From Lachnospiraceae bacterium (GTDB lineage Bacteria > Bacillota > Clostridia > Lachnospirales > Lachnospiraceae), in assembly GCA_036310185.1 (NCBI GenBank), contig JAXJSH010000070.1:59865-123864 (forward strand): a stretch of 64,000 nt of DNA. The letters are read 5' to 3'. The notes beneath the pieces are model-generated. The model was not told where the DNA came from, ran no database searches, and saw nothing but the letters and a program-made list of their open reading frames with translations. This document shows, piece by piece, positions 9,244 to 17,536 of this stretch (positions are counted from its first letter, which is position 1; every line of letters begins with the position of its first letter). The position numbers and the translations under genes are program-made.

Positions 9244-9419
9244 CTCCTTTTATATTGCCAGATATCAAATTTTCATTTTTATCTTTTCGTTGAATTTATT
9301 CCTGTCTGCTATTTTCATAATCCATACTATAGATGAGCAAATATCAAATATTGCACAATTCAGTCCGCTGTACACATGCACAAACTGTGAATAACATTTT
9401 CCATTACCATTTTTGTACT

Positions 9420-9731
9420 TTACTTCATCAGTTTTCCCAGTGTTTTTACCAGTTCATCCACGGTTTCATCCCGACCTGCACGAATATCATCAGCCACACA
9501 GGTTCTGATATGATTCGCCAGAAGCACTTTGTTAAAACTGTTCAGAGCTGCGTTCACTGCTGCCACCTGAACCAGAATATCCGTACAGTATGCATTTTTT
9601 TCCACCATTCCCCGGATTCCTCTGACCTGGCCTTCAATACGATTCAGGCGATTCACCAGATCCCGATATTCTTTTTCTGAACGCTCTTTTGTTTTCCCGC
9701 AGCATTCGCAGATTTCTTTGTTTTCCGCCAT
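9420..9731 (-). CDS. csoR: CsoR-family copper-sensing transcriptional repressor
   Basis: 103 aa. CsoR/RcnR (DUF156) pattern LNRLNRIEGQVRGIRGMVE...YCTDILVQ...H..C. Directly upstream of copA. Confidence 0.85.
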   Translation of the reverse strand: MAENKEICECCGKTKERSEKEYRDLVNRLNRIEGQVRGIRGMVEKNAYCTDILVQVAAVNAALNSFNKVLLANHIRTCVADDIRAGRDETVDELVKTLGKLMK

Positions 9732-9831
9732 ACATGCACCTCCCGGATATTATACCTTTGCATTTTTGCTATTTCATACAGCCATCTGGTCTGCATATTT
9801 TTTGTTTTCGGTAAGTTCTTTTTTGCGCTGT

Positions 9832-9881
9832 ATACCCCTTACCGGTATTTCATATTATTAGTTTATACCCCACCAGGGTAT
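9832..9881 (-). promoter_or_regulatory. Two CsoR-type operator palindromes (ATACCCCTTACCGGTAT and ATACCCCACCAGGGTAT)
   Basis: GC-rich inverted repeats of the ATACCC-N5-GGGTAT type at 9832-9848 and 9865-9881, upstream of csoR. They resemble the known Bacillus copZA operator type TACCC..GGGTA. Confidence 0.6.
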
Positions 9882-9888
9882 TTGTCAA
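9860..9888 (-). promoter_or_regulatory. Putative sigma-A promoter of csoR-copA (TTGACA-17-TAAACT)
   Basis: Minus strand: TTGACA (9883-9888), 17-nt spacer containing the second operator, TAAACT (9860-9865). Confidence 0.55.
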
Positions 9889-9985
9889 TCGATTTATGCT
9901 GTCTGGTATTTTTTCTCATCTAATCTGCTGTAACTAAGCCAGCAGCCACCTTTTAAGCGGTGGTTTAAAAAGTGAACGAATTGAA

Positions 9986-10016
9986 CAGGGGCAGGTGATC
10001 CAAGCACCTGCCCCTG
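9986..10016 (-). terminator. Terminator hairpin ending the glp operon
   Basis: Perfect 12-bp stem CAGGGGCAGGTG/CACCTGCCCCTG with a 7-nt loop, 22 nt after the stop of the micro-ORF. The downstream T-tract is weak and interrupted. Confidence 0.5.
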
Positions 10017-10038
10017 TCCAATTCATTATTTATTCAAA

Positions 10039-10227
10039 TCATTCACCCGTACAGTTCATATCTGTGATGCTGCAGGTTTTATCCTCTTCCTCCGCCACAC
10101 AGTTCATATCCGTCAGCCCACAGGTCTTTTCCTCTTCATCGGCCAGACAGTTCATATCATTTAACCCACAGGTTTTGTCATCATCTGTCATTCCGTTCAT
10201 ATTTGTGATGCCCAGTTCTTTTCCCAT
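10039..10227 (-). CDS. Cys-rich acidic tandem-repeat micro-protein (62 aa), unknown function
   Basis: Strong RBS (GAAAGGAGAATCAGCT-ATG) 15 nt after the DUF1667 stop. The protein contains three 16-aa repeats K-T-C-(G/S)-(L/I)-(N/T)-D-M-N-C plus an acidic linker, and a degenerate fourth copy. Confidence 0.6.
   Translation of the reverse strand: MGKELGITNMNGMTDDDKTCGLNDMNCLADEEEKTCGLTDMNCVAEEEDKTCSITDMNCTGE
10051..10203 (-). repeat. In-frame 48-nt tandem repeat inside the micro-ORF
   Basis: The core ACAGTTCATATC recurs at 10051, 10099 and 10147, an exact 48-nt period. A degenerate copy GTTCATAT lies at 10195. Confidence 0.85.
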
Positions 10228-10242
10228 AGCTGATTCTCCTTT

Positions 10243-10602
10243 CTACAGAACATTCTTCGTGGCTACAATATCCACTCCCGTATCCGCCACATTGGCCAGC
10301 ACAACATCGCCAATGTGCACCGGAGCCGGAACCACGATTCCCTTCAGTGCTTTCACACAATCAAAAATCTTTCCTTTCGGAATATCCTCTTTTGTCTTAA
10401 CGGACACCATATCCGCACTTCCGCCTGTCACCCGAACAGTGGACGTAACGATTCTTGTGGGGTTCGTCACTTCTTTTTCGGCATATATCTTACCGCGTTT
10501 ACAGGTATTTCCGGTTACCTTTACCACTGCAGTTCCATCCATTTCGACAGTCAGAGGACAGCCCATCGGGCAGCTGATACAGGTCAAATTTCTAACTTCC
10601 AT
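10243..10602 (-). CDS. DUF1667 domain-containing protein (Cys-rich, glp operon)
   Basis: 119 aa. N-terminal CISCPMGC motif. It occupies the usual third position in the clostridial G3P dehydrogenase / oxidoreductase / DUF1667 cluster. Confidence 0.75.
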   Translation of the reverse strand: MEVRNLTCISCPMGCPLTVEMDGTAVVKVTGNTCKRGKIYAEKEVTNPTRIVTSTVRVTGGSADMVSVKTKEDIPKGKIFDCVKALKGIVVPAPVHIGDVVLANVADTGVDIVATKNVL

Positions 10603-10604
10603 CT

Positions 10605-11873
10605 TTACGCCTCCTCTATCTTAACGGTAATGTTTTTCAGTTCCGGATAACTCAGCAGCTGCTCTTTTGTAAGCTTGATTTCCTCCATCTCGCCCGGAGC
10701 AACTACCTGACGTTTTTTATGGATCACTCTCTCTTCATCAAAGTATGCGCTCACATAGCAGTTCTTATACACACCGCCCACGCGGAAACGCACGGTCAGA
10801 TTTTCATCCATACGCGCCACATTGATGGTTCCCGGAACGGTATAGCGAACCCCTTCTACTGCACTGATTTTGATGACTTCCTGATCTTCTGACTTCTGTG
10901 CACCGTCTTTTACATAAGCCGCCGCATTCTTTCCTGCCGCAGCCGCCTCCTCGGAAACAAAATCCACCAGATCATGTACATGAAGTACATTACCACAGGC
11001 AAATACGCCCTCAATACTTGTCTCGAGGCTTTCGTTTACCTTCGGTCCGGAAGTAACCGGATTCATCTCAACACCCATACCATTTGAAAGCTCATTTTCC
11101 GGAATCAGACCTACGGAAAGGAGCAGCGTATCACAGGAATAAAATTCCTCGGTTCCCGGAATTGGTTTTCCCCTGTTATCCACTTCTGCCAACGTGATTC
11201 CTTCCACGCGCTCTTTTCCTTTAATATCTACAACCGTGTGACTGAGCTTCAGCGGAATGCCGTAATCATCCAGACACTGTACAATGTTTCGCTTCAGACC
11301 GCCTGAATAGGGCATCAGTTCCGCAACTACTTTGACTTTTGCTCCTTCAAATGTCATTCTTCGTGCCATAATCAATCCGATATCACCGGATCCAAGGATG
11401 ACAACTTCTCTGCCCGGCATATATCCTTCCATGTTTACCAGTCTCTGTGCCGTACCTGCGGAAAAAATGCCTGCCGGACGATAACCCGGAATATTCAGGG
11501 CACCTCTGGACCGCTCGCGGCATCCCATCGCCAGGACAATGGCCTTTGCCTGAATCTCAAACAAACCTTCTTCCCGGTTCATGGCGGTCACCACTTTTTC
11601 CGGGCTGATGTCCATAACCATCGTATTGAGTTTATACTCAATATTCAATTCTTTTACCTGATCGATAAATCTTCCTGCATACTCCGGTCCGGTCAATTCT
11701 TCTTTGAATGTGTGCAGACCGAACCCATTGTGAATACACTGGTTCAAAATGCCGCCAAGTTCTTTATCTCTTTCCAGTATCAAAATACTGTCTATGCCGT
11801 TTTTTCTGGCTGAAACAGCTGCCGAGAGGCCCGCCGGTCCACCGCCAATTATTACGATATCATACGCTTTCAT
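10605..11873 (-). CDS. NAD(P)/FAD-dependent (pyridine nucleotide-disulfide type) oxidoreductase
   Basis: Start re-set to MKAYDIVIIGGGPAGLSAAV, with a GGGGG RBS upstream. Two Rossmann GxGxxG motifs (IIGGGPAG and ILGSGDIG). Confidence 0.85.
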   Translation of the reverse strand: MKAYDIVIIGGGPAGLSAAVSARKNGIDSILILERDKELGGILNQCIHNGFGLHTFKEELTGPEYAGRFIDQVKELNIEYKLNTMVMDISPEKVVTAMNREEGLFEIQAKAIVLAMGCRERSRGALNIPGYRPAGIFSAGTAQRLVNMEGYMPGREVVILGSGDIGLIMARRMTFEGAKVKVVAELMPYSGGLKRNIVQCLDDYGIPLKLSHTVVDIKGKERVEGITLAEVDNRGKPIPGTEEFYSCDTLLLSVGLIPENELSNGMGVEMNPVTSGPKVNESLETSIEGVFACGNVLHVHDLVDFVSEEAAAAGKNAAAYVKDGAQKSEDQEVIKISAVEGVRYTVPGTINVARMDENLTVRFRVGGVYKNCYVSAYFDEERVIHKKRQVVAPGEMEEIKLTKEQLLSYPELKNITVKIEEA

Positions 11874-11889
11874 TCCGACGCCCCCTTTT

Positions 11890-13332
11890 TTATAATGTAT
11901 CTTTGTTTGTTCCAACTACGATTCTGGAATCTCCGCCTGACTTTGTAATGTCAAACATGCTCATATTACATTCGCGGGCAAGAATTTCCATGGTTCTTGG
12001 GGAACAAAATCCTGACTGACAGCGTCCCATTCCTGCTCTGGTTCTTCGCTTTACGCCATCCAGAGATCTGGCACCAAGGGGACGTCTGATTGCATCTATG
12101 ATCTCACCTTCGGTTATCATTTCACAGCGGCAGATAATATTGCCGTATGCCGGATTTTCTTTGATGAGAGCAATACGCTCTTCTTTTGTCAGTTCTTCCG
12201 GATTCAGAATCCCTTTTCTTGTGGCAATAAAGTCTTCCTTTTCTTCCAGCCCCATTTTTTCTTTCAGGATATCCGCAACCATCACACCGATCGCAGGCGC
12301 ACTGGAAAGACCCGGAGACTCGATTCCCGCACAGTCGATAAATCCTTTTGCATCCTCAACCTCTTCAATGATAAACTCATGTCCGTCTTCGTGAGCACGG
12401 AGTCCTGCAAAGGAAGTAATAACCTGTCTCATCGGAATATTTTTCACACTCATTCCGGATTTGGAAATGACCTGATCCAGACCTTCTCTTGTGGTATTGG
12501 TTCCTTCTCTGTCTTCAACGTCGATAGCAGTTGGTCCCACAAGCAGATTTCCATGTACGGTAGGCGTTACCAGAATGCCCTTTCCGTATTTGCCCGGAAG
12601 CGCGAAAATGGTTCTGCTCACGTGTTTTCCTGCACTCTTATCCAGCAGACAGTAATCTCCTCTTCTTGGGGTAATATGTATCTTTTTTTCACTGACCATA
12701 TTGTGGAATACATCTGCGTATACACCAGCCGCATTTACGACGTATTTTGCAGTATAGATTCCTTTGCCTGTGTGCAGTTCAAATCCTTCTTCCAGTTTTC
12801 TGATTTCCTGGACTTCTGTGTTGAACCTGAATTCCACACCGTTTGCATATGCATTTTCCGCAAAAGCGATATTCATGTGAAACGGACACACGATACCGGC
12901 TGTATGTGCGTACAGAGCAGCAACCACTTCATCGGAAACATTCGGTTCCATTTCCAGAACTTCTTCCCTGCCGATAATCCGGAGATCTTTTACTCCATTT
13001 GCAACGCCGCGCTCATAAAGGGCCTGCAGATTCGGCATATCACTTTCATTTAAACAGATAACCAGCGAACCGCATCTTTTGAACGGAAAATCCAGTTCTT
13101 TTGAAAGTTCTTCCATCATCTCATTGCCGCGCACATTTAATTTCGCCATCAGAGACCCTTCCGCCGCGTCATAACCGGCATGGACAATGGCACTGTTTGC
13201 TTTTGATGTTCCGCAGCATACATCTTCTTCTTTTTCGATCACACAGGCTTTTACCTTATAGCGGGATAATTCCCTTGCGGAAGCCGCGCCCGACACTCCT
13301 GCGCCGATTATAATTACATCATAATCAAACAT
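11890..13332 (-). CDS. FAD-dependent glycerol-3-phosphate dehydrogenase/oxidase with C-terminal BFD-like [2Fe-2S] domain
   Basis: 480 aa. N-terminal DVIIIGAGVSGAA FAD motif and C-terminal ICRCEMITEGEI...CQSGFC. Sits in the glp operon context. Confidence 0.85.
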   Translation of the reverse strand: MFDYDVIIIGAGVSGAASARELSRYKVKACVIEKEEDVCCGTSKANSAIVHAGYDAAEGSLMAKLNVRGNEMMEELSKELDFPFKRCGSLVICLNESDMPNLQALYERGVANGVKDLRIIGREEVLEMEPNVSDEVVAALYAHTAGIVCPFHMNIAFAENAYANGVEFRFNTEVQEIRKLEEGFELHTGKGIYTAKYVVNAAGVYADVFHNMVSEKKIHITPRRGDYCLLDKSAGKHVSRTIFALPGKYGKGILVTPTVHGNLLVGPTAIDVEDREGTNTTREGLDQVISKSGMSVKNIPMRQVITSFAGLRAHEDGHEFIIEEVEDAKGFIDCAGIESPGLSSAPAIGVMVADILKEKMGLEEKEDFIATRKGILNPEELTKEERIALIKENPAYGNIICRCEMITEGEIIDAIRRPLGARSLDGVKRRTRAGMGRCQSGFCSPRTMEILARECNMSMFDITKSGGDSRIVVGTNKDTL

Positions 13333-13455
13333 CTTTTCTTTCTCCTTTTTATGTCTCTGTCACAAAGAGCCCAGCAAATCATCGCATGTATAAATGCGGT
13401 ATTGCCAGGCTCTTTATTCACGCAATCACATATTCAGTTTTACAGGTCTGATCTT

Positions 13456-14172
13456 TTACCACGGAATCGCTCCGTATAACAATACAGCTGCAATGGCACC
13501 AAGCACCGGGCCTACTAAAGTAACGATGGCATATTTCCAGTTTGAACTTCCCTTTCCTTTGATCGGAAGGACTGCATGTGCCAGACGAGGTCCGATGTCA
13601 CGGGCCGGATTGATGGCATAACCGGTCAGACCGCCAAGAGACATACCGATGGATACGATGATTCCGAATACAACAAATTTATCAAGACCGCCTGCGATAC
13701 CAGGAACGTTGGCGATACCTTTGATTGCAAATACAAGCACAAAAGTTCCCACTGCTTCACTTAAAATATTAAGCGGCATATTCGGGATAGACGGAGCGGT
13801 GGAAAATACACCGAGTTTTGTTCCCGGATCTTCGGTTGCATCGAACTGGCCCTTGAAGAGCAGATATACCAGACATGCCCCTACAAATGCACCTGCAAAC
13901 TGGGCGATTATATAACCCGGAACCTGTGACCATGCAAAACTTCCCTCAATTGCCAGCGCAAGGGTAAGCGCCGGGTTAAAGGATGCACCGGAAGCCGCAC
14001 CAAAAATACATGCCGGAACCATAACTGCAAGACCCCATGCCAATGTGATCTGGATTGATCCTGCGCCCTTCATACCTGATTTATTCAGGGTTACGTTAGC
14101 TACTACGCCATCACCTAAGAGAATCAACATCATTGTTCCCAAAAATTCTGCTATATATGGTAACATAAACAA
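13456..14172 (-). CDS. glpF: Glycerol uptake facilitator (MIP/aquaporin family)
   Basis: 238 aa. Two NPA boxes (SFNPALTLA and AINPARDIGPR). Confidence 0.9.
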   Translation of the reverse strand: MFMLPYIAEFLGTMMLILLGDGVVANVTLNKSGMKGAGSIQITLAWGLAVMVPACIFGAASGASFNPALTLALAIEGSFAWSQVPGYIIAQFAGAFVGACLVYLLFKGQFDATEDPGTKLGVFSTAPSIPNMPLNILSEAVGTFVLVFAIKGIANVPGIAGGLDKFVVFGIIVSIGMSLGGLTGYAINPARDIGPRLAHAVLPIKGKGSSNWKYAIVTLVGPVLGAIAAVLLYGAIPW

Positions 14173-14251
14173 TTCCTCCTGTTTAAATATTTGAAAATAC
14201 GAGCACTATTCCTGCCCCTGTACGGAACGCAGTCATTCTGCATTTTCACGA

Positions 14252-15889
<1,638 letters not shown>

Positions 15890-15988
15890 TTACAATATTC
15901 ATTTGTTTTTTCATATATTATGCACATACTCGTATATTCTTCTTGTGCACTATGTATATTTTGTTTATTTTTTAACATTCCTATTTGG

Positions 15989-16642
15989 TTATTTTTTTAT
16001 CAATCTTAAAACCTCTTCCATATCTTTCTGACCAACGTAAACATCTTCATCATTCACAATAACCACCGGCACACGTTCTATTTTATATCGCTCCACCAAA
16101 TCTTTATAAAGTGTGGCATCAATCATTTCTGCCTCAATATTTTCGTTCAGGGAGGCAATTCTCTGACAGGCTGCAACCACCTTCGGGCAATGATGACAGG
16201 CCAGTGATACACATATTTTAATATTTGTCTTTTTATCCAGCTTCTGAATCTTTTTTAAGGTCCATCTGCTGATTTCCTGTCCTGGTCCGGCAAGATTATA
16301 GATAGCCAGAACAAAGGAATTAATCTCCTGCCCTCCGGGCACTCCATGAAAAGCAACACCGCAATACCGCCCATCTTTGTACATAGCCACTGCCGGAAGA
16401 TAGGTCTGATCCAATTCCGGAACCTCAGTTCCTTCCGACGCATCATAGACTTCCAGGTGTATTTTTTCATTTAATGCAGCAACAGCAGCAAGGAATTCCG
16501 CCATCTCTTTCCCCTTGGCATCATTCATATCCACAACGGATTTCAGAATCATATCCTCTGTCAGTTTTGCAAAAATCCCGGACAGTTCACTTTTCAGTTT
16601 ATCATTGACCAATGGACTTTCCGCCTTAATGTTTTCGATCAT
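15989..16642 (-). CDS. Thioredoxin-fold protein resembling the AhpF N-terminal domain (no reductase module)
   Basis: Start re-set to MIENIKAESPL, with RBS GGAGGG, 11 nt after the ahpC stop. A single CxxC motif (CHHCPKV) and a tandem thioredoxin-like layout. Confidence 0.7.
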   Translation of the reverse strand: MIENIKAESPLVNDKLKSELSGIFAKLTEDMILKSVVDMNDAKGKEMAEFLAAVAALNEKIHLEVYDASEGTEVPELDQTYLPAVAMYKDGRYCGVAFHGVPGGQEINSFVLAIYNLAGPGQEISRWTLKKIQKLDKKTNIKICVSLACHHCPKVVAACQRIASLNENIEAEMIDATLYKDLVERYKIERVPVVIVNDEDVYVGQKDMEEVLRLIKK

Positions 16643-16653
16643 CCGAATCCCTC

Positions 16654-17229
16654 CTACAGCATACCCACAAGATCCAGACTTGGCATTAATGTGTCTTCGC
16701 CCGGTCTCCATTTCGCCGGACACACCTGATCTCCGTGGGTTTCCACGAACTGAGCAGCCTGAACCTTTCTAAGAAGTTCTTCTGCATTTCTTCCGATTCC
16801 CATATCGTGAATCTCATAAGCCTTAATTTTTCCCTCCGGATTCACAATAAACGTACCGCGAAGTGCCTGTCCCTCCTCTTCTACCAGCACGCCAAAGAAA
16901 CGGGCCAGTTTTCCAGCCGGATCACCCAACATGGGATAAGGTATTCTTCTGATCGTCTCAGATGCATCTGCCCAGGCCTTGTGAACAAAATGTGTATCTT
17001 CTGATACGGAATAAATCTCACAGTCAGCAGCTTCAAATTCCTCGTAAAAATCAGCCAGATCCCCCAGTTCTGTGGGACAGACAAACGTAAAATCCGCAGG
17101 ATAAAAGAAAAATACGGACCAGTGGCCCAGAATATCTTCCTTTGTCACTTCAATAAACGCGCCTCTGTGATACGCCTGCACTTTGAAATCTTCTACCTCT
17201 CTGTTGATTAAGCTGCACATTTTCATCAC
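16654..17229 (-). CDS. ahpC: Peroxiredoxin, typical 2-Cys (AhpC)
   Basis: 191 aa. Peroxidatic FTFVCPTE motif and resolving VCPAKW motif. The exact start among the MMKM codons is uncertain. Confidence 0.9.
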   Translation of the reverse strand: MMKMCSLINREVEDFKVQAYHRGAFIEVTKEDILGHWSVFFFYPADFTFVCPTELGDLADFYEEFEAADCEIYSVSEDTHFVHKAWADASETIRRIPYPMLGDPAGKLARFFGVLVEEEGQALRGTFIVNPEGKIKAYEIHDMGIGRNAEELLRKVQAAQFVETHGDQVCPAKWRPGEDTLMPSLDLVGML

Positions 17230-17239
17230 CTCGTCCTTT

Positions 17240-17536
17240 TTATTTTAATTCATTCTCATGGCCGCGCTCTGCGGAAGCTTTTTCCGCATCACCATATTCA
17301 CCCTCGTTTTTTCCGGAATTCTCATCGCTGCGATTTTTATACAGACCAATAAGACTGCTGACCACAAAAAATCCACCGATGACAACGAAAAGGACAGAAA
17401 ATATCCCCAGAATCACCGGATTGGCTCCGGTCTCTTCGTTTACATATCCCATAACCAGTTTTACTCCCAGATACGCAACATATGCACCTACTGCGATTCT
17501 TAAATAGTACGAAGAATTTGTATTTTTATCCTCCAC
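17240..17536 (-). CDS. Hypothetical small membrane protein
   Basis: 98 aa. Two predicted hydrophobic helices and an acidic/Lys-rich tail. No recognisable family. Confidence 0.5.
   Translation of the reverse strand: MEDKNTNSSYYLRIAVGAYVAYLGVKLVMGYVNEETGANPVILGIFSVLFVVIGGFFVVSSLIGLYKNRSDENSGKNEGEYGDAEKASAERGHENELK

Follow-up and report, generated by a model that had tools for sequence, protein, structure and literature searches.

A conserved small protein of tandem Cys-x6-Cys repeats encoded beside glycerol-3-phosphate oxidation and AhpC genes in gut Clostridia, a candidate thiol-redox accessory

A 64,000-nucleotide (nt) stretch of a Lachnospiraceae bacterium genome (contig JAXJSH010000070.1, positions 59,865 to 123,864), hereafter called the window, was analyzed around a small open reading frame (ORF) at the end of a glycerol-3-phosphate (G3P) oxidation operon (Table). 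The ORF encodes a 62-residue product, MGKELGITNMNGMTDDDKTCGLNDMNCLADEEEKTCGLTDMNCVAEEEDKTCSITDMNCTGE, which is an acidic protein of 6.7 kDa with an isoelectric point of 4.05, rich in Cys, Met and Asp. Its six Cys make up 10% of the residues. No signal peptide or transmembrane segment was detected in it by sequence analysis. The ATG of the ORF (10227-10225) is separated by 15 nt from the TAG stop codon (10245-10243) of fngC, a DUF1667 gene. An original prediction made from the sequence alone had given the reading frame, its translation, the ribosome-binding site and the 15-nt gap, and all of these proved to be exact.

The coding sequence consists of tandem repeats. Tandem Repeats Finder reported 2.6 copies of a period of 48 nt at 10051-10173, with 80% matches, 0 indels and a score of 141. 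The exact 48-nt repeat noticed earlier was thereby recovered, and its cores, ACAGTTCATATC, were confirmed at 10051, 10099 and 10147. The three Cys-bearing repeats stood as predicted; the N-terminal segment had been set apart from them, but judging from the alignments this segment is another copy of the 16-residue repeat, the fourth, which lacks Cys, and there is no separate leader. The operon terminator that had been placed after the ORF was found as well, its stem starting 14 nt past the peptide stop codon. A promoter-like site for the gene of a CsoR-type repressor comes after the terminator.

The genes are transcribed from the minus strand in the order ahpC, trx3, glpK, glpF, fngA, fngB, fngC and the peptide gene, followed by the terminator. 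The neighbours named in the original prediction (DUF1667, Pyr_redox_2, DAO with Fer2_BFD and MIP genes, and the CsoR-type repressor and CopA genes downstream of the operon) were all found as described. The three genes directly upstream of the peptide (DAO with BFD, Pyr_redox_2 and DUF1667) correspond to FngABC, a ferredoxin- and nicotinamide adenine dinucleotide (NAD)-dependent electron-bifurcating G3P oxidoreductase, which was purified from P. furiosus as a heterotrimer (Schut, Poole and Adams 2026, PMC13689815). Clostridia contain about 35% of the FngABC homologues, and neither a fourth small subunit nor a peroxiredoxin is mentioned in the text of that paper (PMC13689815).

Table. Features of the peptide gene, its operon and the ars-linked relatives. 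Positions are those of the window unless a locus handle is given; FAD, flavin adenine dinucleotide; dG, folding free energy.
Feature	Position	Strand	Remarks
Small-protein gene, 62 residues	10039..10227	-	Stop codon included in the coordinates
Shine-Dalgarno sequence AAGGAG	10236..10241	-	8 nt 5' of the peptide ATG
Repeat 1 core LGITNMNG	10192..10215	-	Cys-less in alignments: Leu at first pair position, Gly at second
Repeat 2 core CGLNDMNC	10147..10170	-	Cys20-x6-Cys27
Repeat 3 core CGLTDMNC	10099..10122	-	Cys36-x6-Cys43
Repeat 4 core CSITDMNC	10051..10074	-	Cys52-x6-Cys59
Intrinsic terminator, end of transcription unit	9978..10024	-	20-bp stem; dG -42.6 kcal/mol; z = -9.2 against shuffles; T-rich tail
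fngC (DUF1667)	10243..10602	-	E 2e-36; invariant Cys8/11/15/34 motif; PMC13689815
fngB, FAD/NAD-binding Pyr_redox_2	10605..11915	-	No CxxC; likely true start Met at 11873
fngA, FAD G3P dehydrogenase, DAO with BFD-like [2Fe-2S] tail (Fer2_BFD)	11890..13332	-	Family matches; PMC13689815
glpF, MIP-family glycerol facilitator	13456..14172	-	Family match
glpK, glycerol kinase (FGGY)	14252..15883	-	Family match
trx3, N-terminal-domain-only AhpF homologue (Thioredoxin_3)	15989..16723	-	CHHC motif; likely start near 16642
ahpC, typical 2-Cys peroxiredoxin	16654..17229	-	Family match
ars-linked relatives	L036:9539-9733; L138:7001-7195; L141:6911-7105; L142:6992-7177; L143:919-1113		Last repeat NMCG, not NMNG; one Cys

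The peptide ORF is a real, strongly conserved protein-coding gene under purifying selection at the protein level. A word-indexed protein search returned 21 homologues with E values down to 2e-25. Scanning one genome per species, 180 stretches encoding a Cys-type relative were found, corresponding to about 180 species; 79 loci were retained from them, and synteny was counted over 78 species loci. In a profile search of 1.84 billion representatives, 151 matches were obtained at E <= 1e-3, nearly all of them 40-100 residues long. A profile was needed, as a single-sequence search of 61 relatives matched the window's own copy only. The Shine-Dalgarno sequence and the ATG were present in 14/14 homologues and in nearly all of the 78 loci, the former being of the GGAGG type and placed 6-9 nt 5' of the ATG. 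Nei-Gojobori counts on 12 diverse orthologues gave a saturated proportion of synonymous differences (pS 0.5-1.0) against a nonsynonymous proportion (pN) of 0.13-0.40, and omega was about 0.07-0.3 where it was calculable. Further, TGC/TGT, GAT/GAC and AAC/AAT alternated freely at the invariant Cys, Asp and Asn codons. Since synonymous sites were saturated and synonymous codons freely used, the constraint acts on the protein and not on DNA or RNA. The equal synonymous and nonsynonymous rates that the original prediction had listed as speaking against it were not observed. Abundant gut members of the Lachnospiraceae and Oscillospiraceae carry the gene, among them the cultured Enterocloster, Mediterraneibacter and Clostridium porci.

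Such constraint bears on the idea that the peptide itself is irrelevant and that the gene acts in cis as a short ORF (sORF), in which stalling at Cys, Asn or Met codons tunes downstream termination or expression. Polycysteine sORF attenuators occur in mycobacteria (bioRxiv 10.1101/834739), the stop codon in the window is 14 nt from the terminator stem, and dhaKLM lies downstream on the same strand in 31/78 loci. However, the downstream gene was variable or absent, the distance from stop codon to hairpin varied from 4 to 66 nt, and a terminator-like element was found in 23/77 loci only. Taken with the purifying selection over the whole sequence at saturated synonymous sites, and with the covariation of Cys pairs and hydrophobic-Gly pairs described below, which is a protein-level signal, this led us to reject an assignment to the attenuator sORFs and to regard a purely cis-acting role as extremely improbable.

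Profile comparisons place the peptide in a family of small proteins that is undescribed and uncurated. Its members have about 60 residues, four 16-residue repeats and an invariant [D/N]-M-N core, and they form about 150 clusters at 50% identity. The rule used for the family was a length of about 60 residues and 3-5 tandem repeats of about 16 residues, each with a hydrophobic residue or Cys, three residues, [D/N]-M-N and then G/A or C. The window peptide obeyed this rule in the alignments and in the covariation, including the joint retention or loss of both Cys of a repeat. The peptide and 10 diverse relatives had no Pfam or NCBIfam match above noise (for NCBIfam, none at E <= 1), and a sequence profile search of the PDB produced one chance match (E = 3.7). 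A literature search with the motif strings GLNDMNC and ITNMNG found no match, and NMNG and DMNC appeared as unrelated abbreviations only. The homologues, the selection and these empty library scans bear out the earlier view of a genuine small protein of no named family, with no maturase nearby. Roughly one half of the members lack Cys, their repeats following the pattern [Y/F/L]-S-[I/L]-x-[D/N]-M-N-G-[V/I]-[S/T]; it is therefore [D/N]-M-N, and not Cys, that defines the family. These Cys-less relatives had been missed by the original prediction.

The Cys pairs are strictly coupled. In 824 repeats from 246 non-redundant proteins, which are related sequences and hence not independent events, Cys occupied both the first and the eighth repeat positions in 415 repeats and only one of the two in 2. 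The remaining 407 had a hydrophobic residue (L/Y/F) first and Gly or Ala eighth. The rule was upheld in distant lineages: Oscillospiraceae copies carry F/Y..A in repeat 3, P0017 and L034 carry A/T..G, and L019 carries A..N. The number of pairs per protein was 0, 1, 2, 3 or 4. As the two Cys of a pair are lost jointly and the number of pairs varies from 0 to 4, each pair is autonomous and not part of one shared cluster. From the covariation we infer that the first and eighth positions are in contact, so that a pair would be a disulfide or a bidentate thiolate site. Asn-Gly is a classic type I' turn former. In the Cys form the turn Gly is replaced, and the loop is probably closed by a Cys-Cys link instead.

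Repeats within a gene shared 80.5% of their nucleotides and repeats of different genes 75-76%, regardless of whether matching repeat positions were compared. Because identity between genes was equal at the same and at different positions, the repeats are interchangeable, and by these nucleotide identities they are mildly homogenised within genes. One species has a five-repeat version with four Cys pairs (L083:8061-8312). In several species, such as that of L091, three repeats are identical at the protein level, so both repeat number and homogenisation vary.

AlphaFold2 gave a mean confidence (pLDDT, predicted local distance difference test) of 53 with 20 sequences and 67.5 with 86, the latter with a predicted template modelling score of 0.22. 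No secondary structure and no global fold were predicted, confidence being highest, though moderate, around the loops. A Foldseek search with the peptide model found no match in the PDB. Membership of the thioredoxin/glutaredoxin superfamily was rejected, as there was no Pfam match, no predicted secondary structure, no Foldseek match and no CxxC. A 1568-residue protein (P0165) that repeats DSFTY-DV-x-D-I-N-G-x-TETAT every 88 residues was a weak match to the family profile, and one Cys-less member matched the bacterial Ig domain Big_9 at E 0.13. These are hints that the repeat resembles the strand-turn-strand hairpin of Ig-like domains.

A short, acidic, Cys-rich protein with Cys placed 3-4 residues from Asp or Asn in each repeat is reminiscent of ranthipeptide precursors (SCIFF, PapA/freyrasin and NxxC-type). 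The sequences C-G-L-N-D and D-M-N-C look superficially like freyrasin and NxxC motifs, which served as a lead only. The original prediction had listed a repeat precursor of a ribosomally synthesized and post-translationally modified peptide (RiPP) matured in trans. In such a multi-core precursor, Cys-x3-Asp or [D/N]-x-x-Cys thioethers would be installed by a distant enzyme, for instance the SCIFF maturase. The repeated core, the acidity and the presence of one radical-SAM enzyme with a SPASM domain in the genome fit this idea. That enzyme, the only one in the genome above the cut-off, nevertheless lies on another contig, where a SCIFF precursor of its own adjoins it. The precursor, MKHIKTLNTKNLQNTLKKGGCGECQTSCQSACKTSCTVGNQSCESQK, was found at L188:247-390 (genome G000, contig C63), followed by the 472-residue radical-SAM/SPASM maturase at L188:412-1830 and by secD. 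Moreover, SCIFF is near-universal in Clostridia, whereas the peptide occurs in about 2% of Lachnospiraceae genera. No maturase was found in the window, and no radical-SAM, YcaO, LanM, peptidase or exporter gene recurred in about 90 loci from several families. The peptide also has no recognisable leader, no match to the SCIFF model and none to the NCBIfam precursor models. The same scaffold is kept by Cys-less relatives, and the gene often sits inside a metabolic operon, a terminator-like hairpin being found in just 4/31 spacers between the peptide gene and dhaK. The SCIFF/ranthipeptide assignment was thus rejected, and a RiPP of any such type was considered very improbable.

The gene neighbourhood is narrow. 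Fng genes lie within 10 kb of the peptide gene in 66/78 loci and ahpC/trx3 in 64/78, and zero of the 78 loci fall outside an fngABC and/or ahpC-trx3 neighbourhood. No csoR, maturase or exporter gene recurred in them. The gene upstream is fngC in 47/78 loci, divergent ahpC in 19, divergent trx3 in 5, trx3 on the same strand in 2 and glpF in 2; dhaKLM was next on the same strand in 31 loci. The tie to G3P dehydrogenase, the oxidoreductase and DUF1667, suggested originally, was upheld as co-occurrence. It was not upheld as a fixed appendage, because 26/78 copies stand beside ahpC/trx3 and 2 after glpF, and homologues do not always follow DUF1667 genes. All ten loci with ahpC-trx3 only come from genomes with DUF1667 elsewhere (10/10). 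Thus every checkable peptide genome encodes Fng, adjacent in 66/78 loci and elsewhere in the 10/10 remaining testable ones. Any member of the family was found in 8/401 sampled Lachnospiraceae genera (about 2%), six of which have the Cys type.

Some Cys of the Fng subunits were commoner in peptide-bearing clusters than in 5-11 peptide-less ones, namely FngB C386 (80% vs 10%), FngA C39/C40 (about 100% vs 40-60%) and FngC C82 (94% vs 55%). This enrichment may perhaps reflect shared ancestry or phylogenetic signal only.

Association with Fng raises the question of a mini-ferredoxin, that is, a small Fe-S carrier acting as the low-potential partner of FngABC, and an Fe-S accessory had been among the first suggestions. 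FngABC needs ferredoxin (PMC13689815), the peptide is acidic, has about 60 residues and six Cys, and Fng co-occurs in every testable genome. Against this, pairs that are lost independently and number from 0 to 4 do not fit a fixed four-Cys cluster. There is no CxxCxxC-type motif, the spacing being C-x6-C, and no match to a ferredoxin or rubredoxin family in Pfam or to the PDB; and more than 85% of the Fng operons sampled have no peptide. We therefore did not assign the peptide to the ferredoxin- or rubredoxin-type carriers, and an Fe-S function appeared highly unlikely.

The most specific neighbours of the peptide gene are ahpC and the gene of an AhpF N-terminal-domain homologue with CxxC, a link that the original prediction had missed. 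Peptide loci always had the short AhpF homologue, whose length was 232 residues at the median and never above 364 residues from stop to stop. Among 151 Lachnospiraceae genomes, 24 had an AhpF homologue. It was full-length (frames of 510-583 residues) in 20 of these, and none of the 20 genomes had the peptide; it was reduced to the N-terminal domain in four, of which three (G000, G081 and G157) had the peptide and the fourth, G022, did not. Our own hypergeometric calculation gave p of about 0.002 for the finding that 3/3 peptide genomes belong to the four with the short form. In four informative peptide-less Fng operons, including that of G002, ahpC and trx3 were not found nearby. Split AhpF/AhpC variants are known from clostridia, Cp34/Cp9/Cp20 of C. 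pasteurianum being the closest form. As the window system is without the flavin/CxxC half of AhpF, another dithiol or flavoprotein donor would be needed, and dithiols are what the peptide would offer. FngB is thioredoxin-reductase-like, with no CxxC of its own. The cluster thus holds a peroxidase, the disulfide-shuttle half of AhpF and a flavoprotein without a redox disulfide, parts that the three dithiol pairs of the peptide may complement. Unlike AhpF, the peptide shows neither CxxC nor a thioredoxin or glutaredoxin fold; it consists of tandem C-x6-C repeats without a predicted fold.

A link to the copper operon, the next transcription unit in the window, was not borne out, as csoR was present in 0/78 other loci. 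The same-genus genome G002 keeps csoR beside glpP-glpK-fngABC, with an FngC 76% identical, and has no glpF, ahpC, trx3 or peptide. Comparison of its locus (L157, G002:C24:79000-98000) with window positions 9400-17300 suggests replacement of a cassette at a conserved site.

Relatives were also found in other settings. In five loci, a Cys-poor subfamily (SINNMNGVS...NMCG) is encoded between ACR3 and arsD-arsA-arsC, apparently as a gene that has escaped annotation in clostridial ars operons. In one of these loci (L036) a relaxase gene lies a few kb away; a tblastn search of plasmids with an ars-linked relative found no match. Two further members, L151:6995-7162 with two Cys-less repeats and L140:5649-5876 with one Cys pair, each have a long unrelated C-terminal tail and come from fermentation and gut metagenomes, in which a glpF-fngABC-dhaKLM operon precedes them by 230-440 nt. 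Still other copies have as neighbours gltX with a hydrogenase-like gene, GNAT/NUDIX genes, or genes for GntR and a HypB-like GTPase.

The ars-linked loci bring in a metal- or metalloid-binding role similar to that of metallothioneins or metallochaperones (SmtA, MymT, CopZ, ArsD), which are likewise small, cytoplasmic and thiol-bearing. The pairs, together with Asp, Met and Asn, would bind As(III), Cu(I), Zn or Fe that enters or is released during glycerol uptake or oxidative damage. This role, the main alternative owing to the ars link though rather unlikely in our estimate, is consistent with the sister subfamily directly upstream of arsD, with the acidic composition rich in Cys, Met and Asp, with an apo form predicted to be unfolded, and with a variable number of pairs, as expected of bidentate sites. 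GlpF-type channels conduct arsenite, and glpF belongs to the cluster. Yet the ars-linked subfamily is Cys-poor, with a single Cys in NMCG, and no metal transporter or regulator recurred in the 78 loci, csoR being in none. The adjacency of csoR-copA is seen also in G002, which has no peptide. With six Cys in 62 residues, no CxC or CxxC clusters and no match to a metallothionein family, the peptide was not assigned to the metallothioneins.

Further, the Cys-less members argue for a scaffold role that does not depend on thiols and is probably binding; where the gene lies with ahpC/fng, the Cys pairs would bring a further function, in redox or as ligands. In its extreme form, this would make the peptide a multivalent, non-catalytic binder or regulator whose hairpin-like [D/N]MN[G/C] repeats dock onto an oligomeric partner, for example Fng, GlpK/GlpF, DhaKLM or a thioredoxin-fold protein, the Cys pairs being structural staples or a redox gate. 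It accords with a family that is defined by [D/N]-M-N and is about half Cys-less, with Cys-less and one-pair members that still follow fng-dha operons, and with repeats that are interchangeable and mildly homogenised. Both the ars and the ahp settings adjoin a Thioredoxin_3-like protein, ArsD being a weak match (E 7e-4). BLASTP found no detectable similarity between trx3 and ArsD, so a shared thioredoxin-fold partner is a lead only. On the other side, the Cys-less members occur in mixed gene settings (hydrogenase-gltX, GNAT/NUDIX, GntR/HypB-like), and the near-perfect retention of Cys pairs in ahpC/fng loci indicates that thiols matter there. Such a non-catalytic binder was held to be unlikely.

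It was proposed, on the basis of sequence, covariation and gene neighbourhood, that the peptide works in the cytoplasm as a dithiol/disulfide accessory and connects glycerol oxidation with peroxide defence by AhpC and truncated AhpF, a tentative reading to which we give a probability of roughly 0.45. The peptide would be probably a thiol-based redox helper and not a modified antibiotic-like peptide. It is acidic, with C-x6-C in three of its four repeats, and would be cytoplasmic and largely unstructured. Each pair would work on its own as a two-thiol unit, in the simplest case forming a reversible disulfide within the molecule to close the loop GLNDMN, and would stand in for the hydrophobic...Gly/Ala contact at the Asn-Gly turn of the Cys-less relatives. 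As a thiol-redox accessory it would act at the junction of G3P oxidation by FngABC and peroxide reduction by AhpC, whose partner would be a truncated AhpF lacking its own flavin/CxxC reductase module. Its role might be that of a relay, of a protectant or of a binder gated by redox state.

Several points weigh against this proposal. To our knowledge, C-x6-C is not a known redox motif, and stable disulfides are unusual in the cytoplasm of an anaerobe. A comparable ORF follows fngC in 0/9 other DUF1667-bearing relatives, including G002 of the same genus. As noted above, the large majority of Fng operons (>85% of those sampled) have no peptide, which makes the peptide an accessory. By its co-occurrence the peptide is not an obligate fourth subunit of FngABC, and the purified P. 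furiosus enzyme is described as a heterotrimer (PMC13689815). At least one system with N-terminal-domain-only AhpF, that of G022, does without the peptide too. The twelve Fng-only loci come from genomes with a short trx3 elsewhere (five), a full-length AhpF (four) or no AhpF homologue (three), so the AhpF link is strong but not absolute. L151 and L140 behind fngABC-dhaKLM operons indicate that the tie of the scaffold to the operon is not strictly thiol-dependent. No family member was found in the MetaRibo-Seq supplementary data, and the repeat counts, as stated, come from related sequences.

A bolder variant was considered as well, in which the peptide is a multi-dithiol relay completing a split AhpF, with electrons passing from FngB, or from the Fe-S/flavin chain of FngABC, to the peptide disulfides, then to the truncated AhpF and finally to AhpC. 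This variant draws on the same inventory of cluster parts as the main proposal and was judged doubtful. G3P (about -190 mV) is unable to reduce NAD+ without ferredoxin. If the relay existed, G3P could be oxidised with peroxide as the electron sink, which would amount to a glycerol-fuelled peroxide reductase in gut anaerobes. The Cys-less relatives would then be constitutively closed hairpin scaffolds, serving for binding only.

The peptide represents a conserved family outside all curated databases, with about 150 clusters and a Cys-type form in about 180 species, and it is tied to an enzyme, FngABC, that was first described in 2026. The strict covariation of Cys pairs with hydrophobic-Gly pairs provides a clean natural experiment for small-protein structure. 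Many hosts keep the N-terminal domain of AhpF only, which poses the question of how AhpC is re-reduced. Should the peptide prove to be the missing thiol link, the way in which strict anaerobes connect glycerol catabolism with defence against peroxide would become visible, and tandem autonomous C-x6-C loops on a disordered chain would be a new type of redox carrier.

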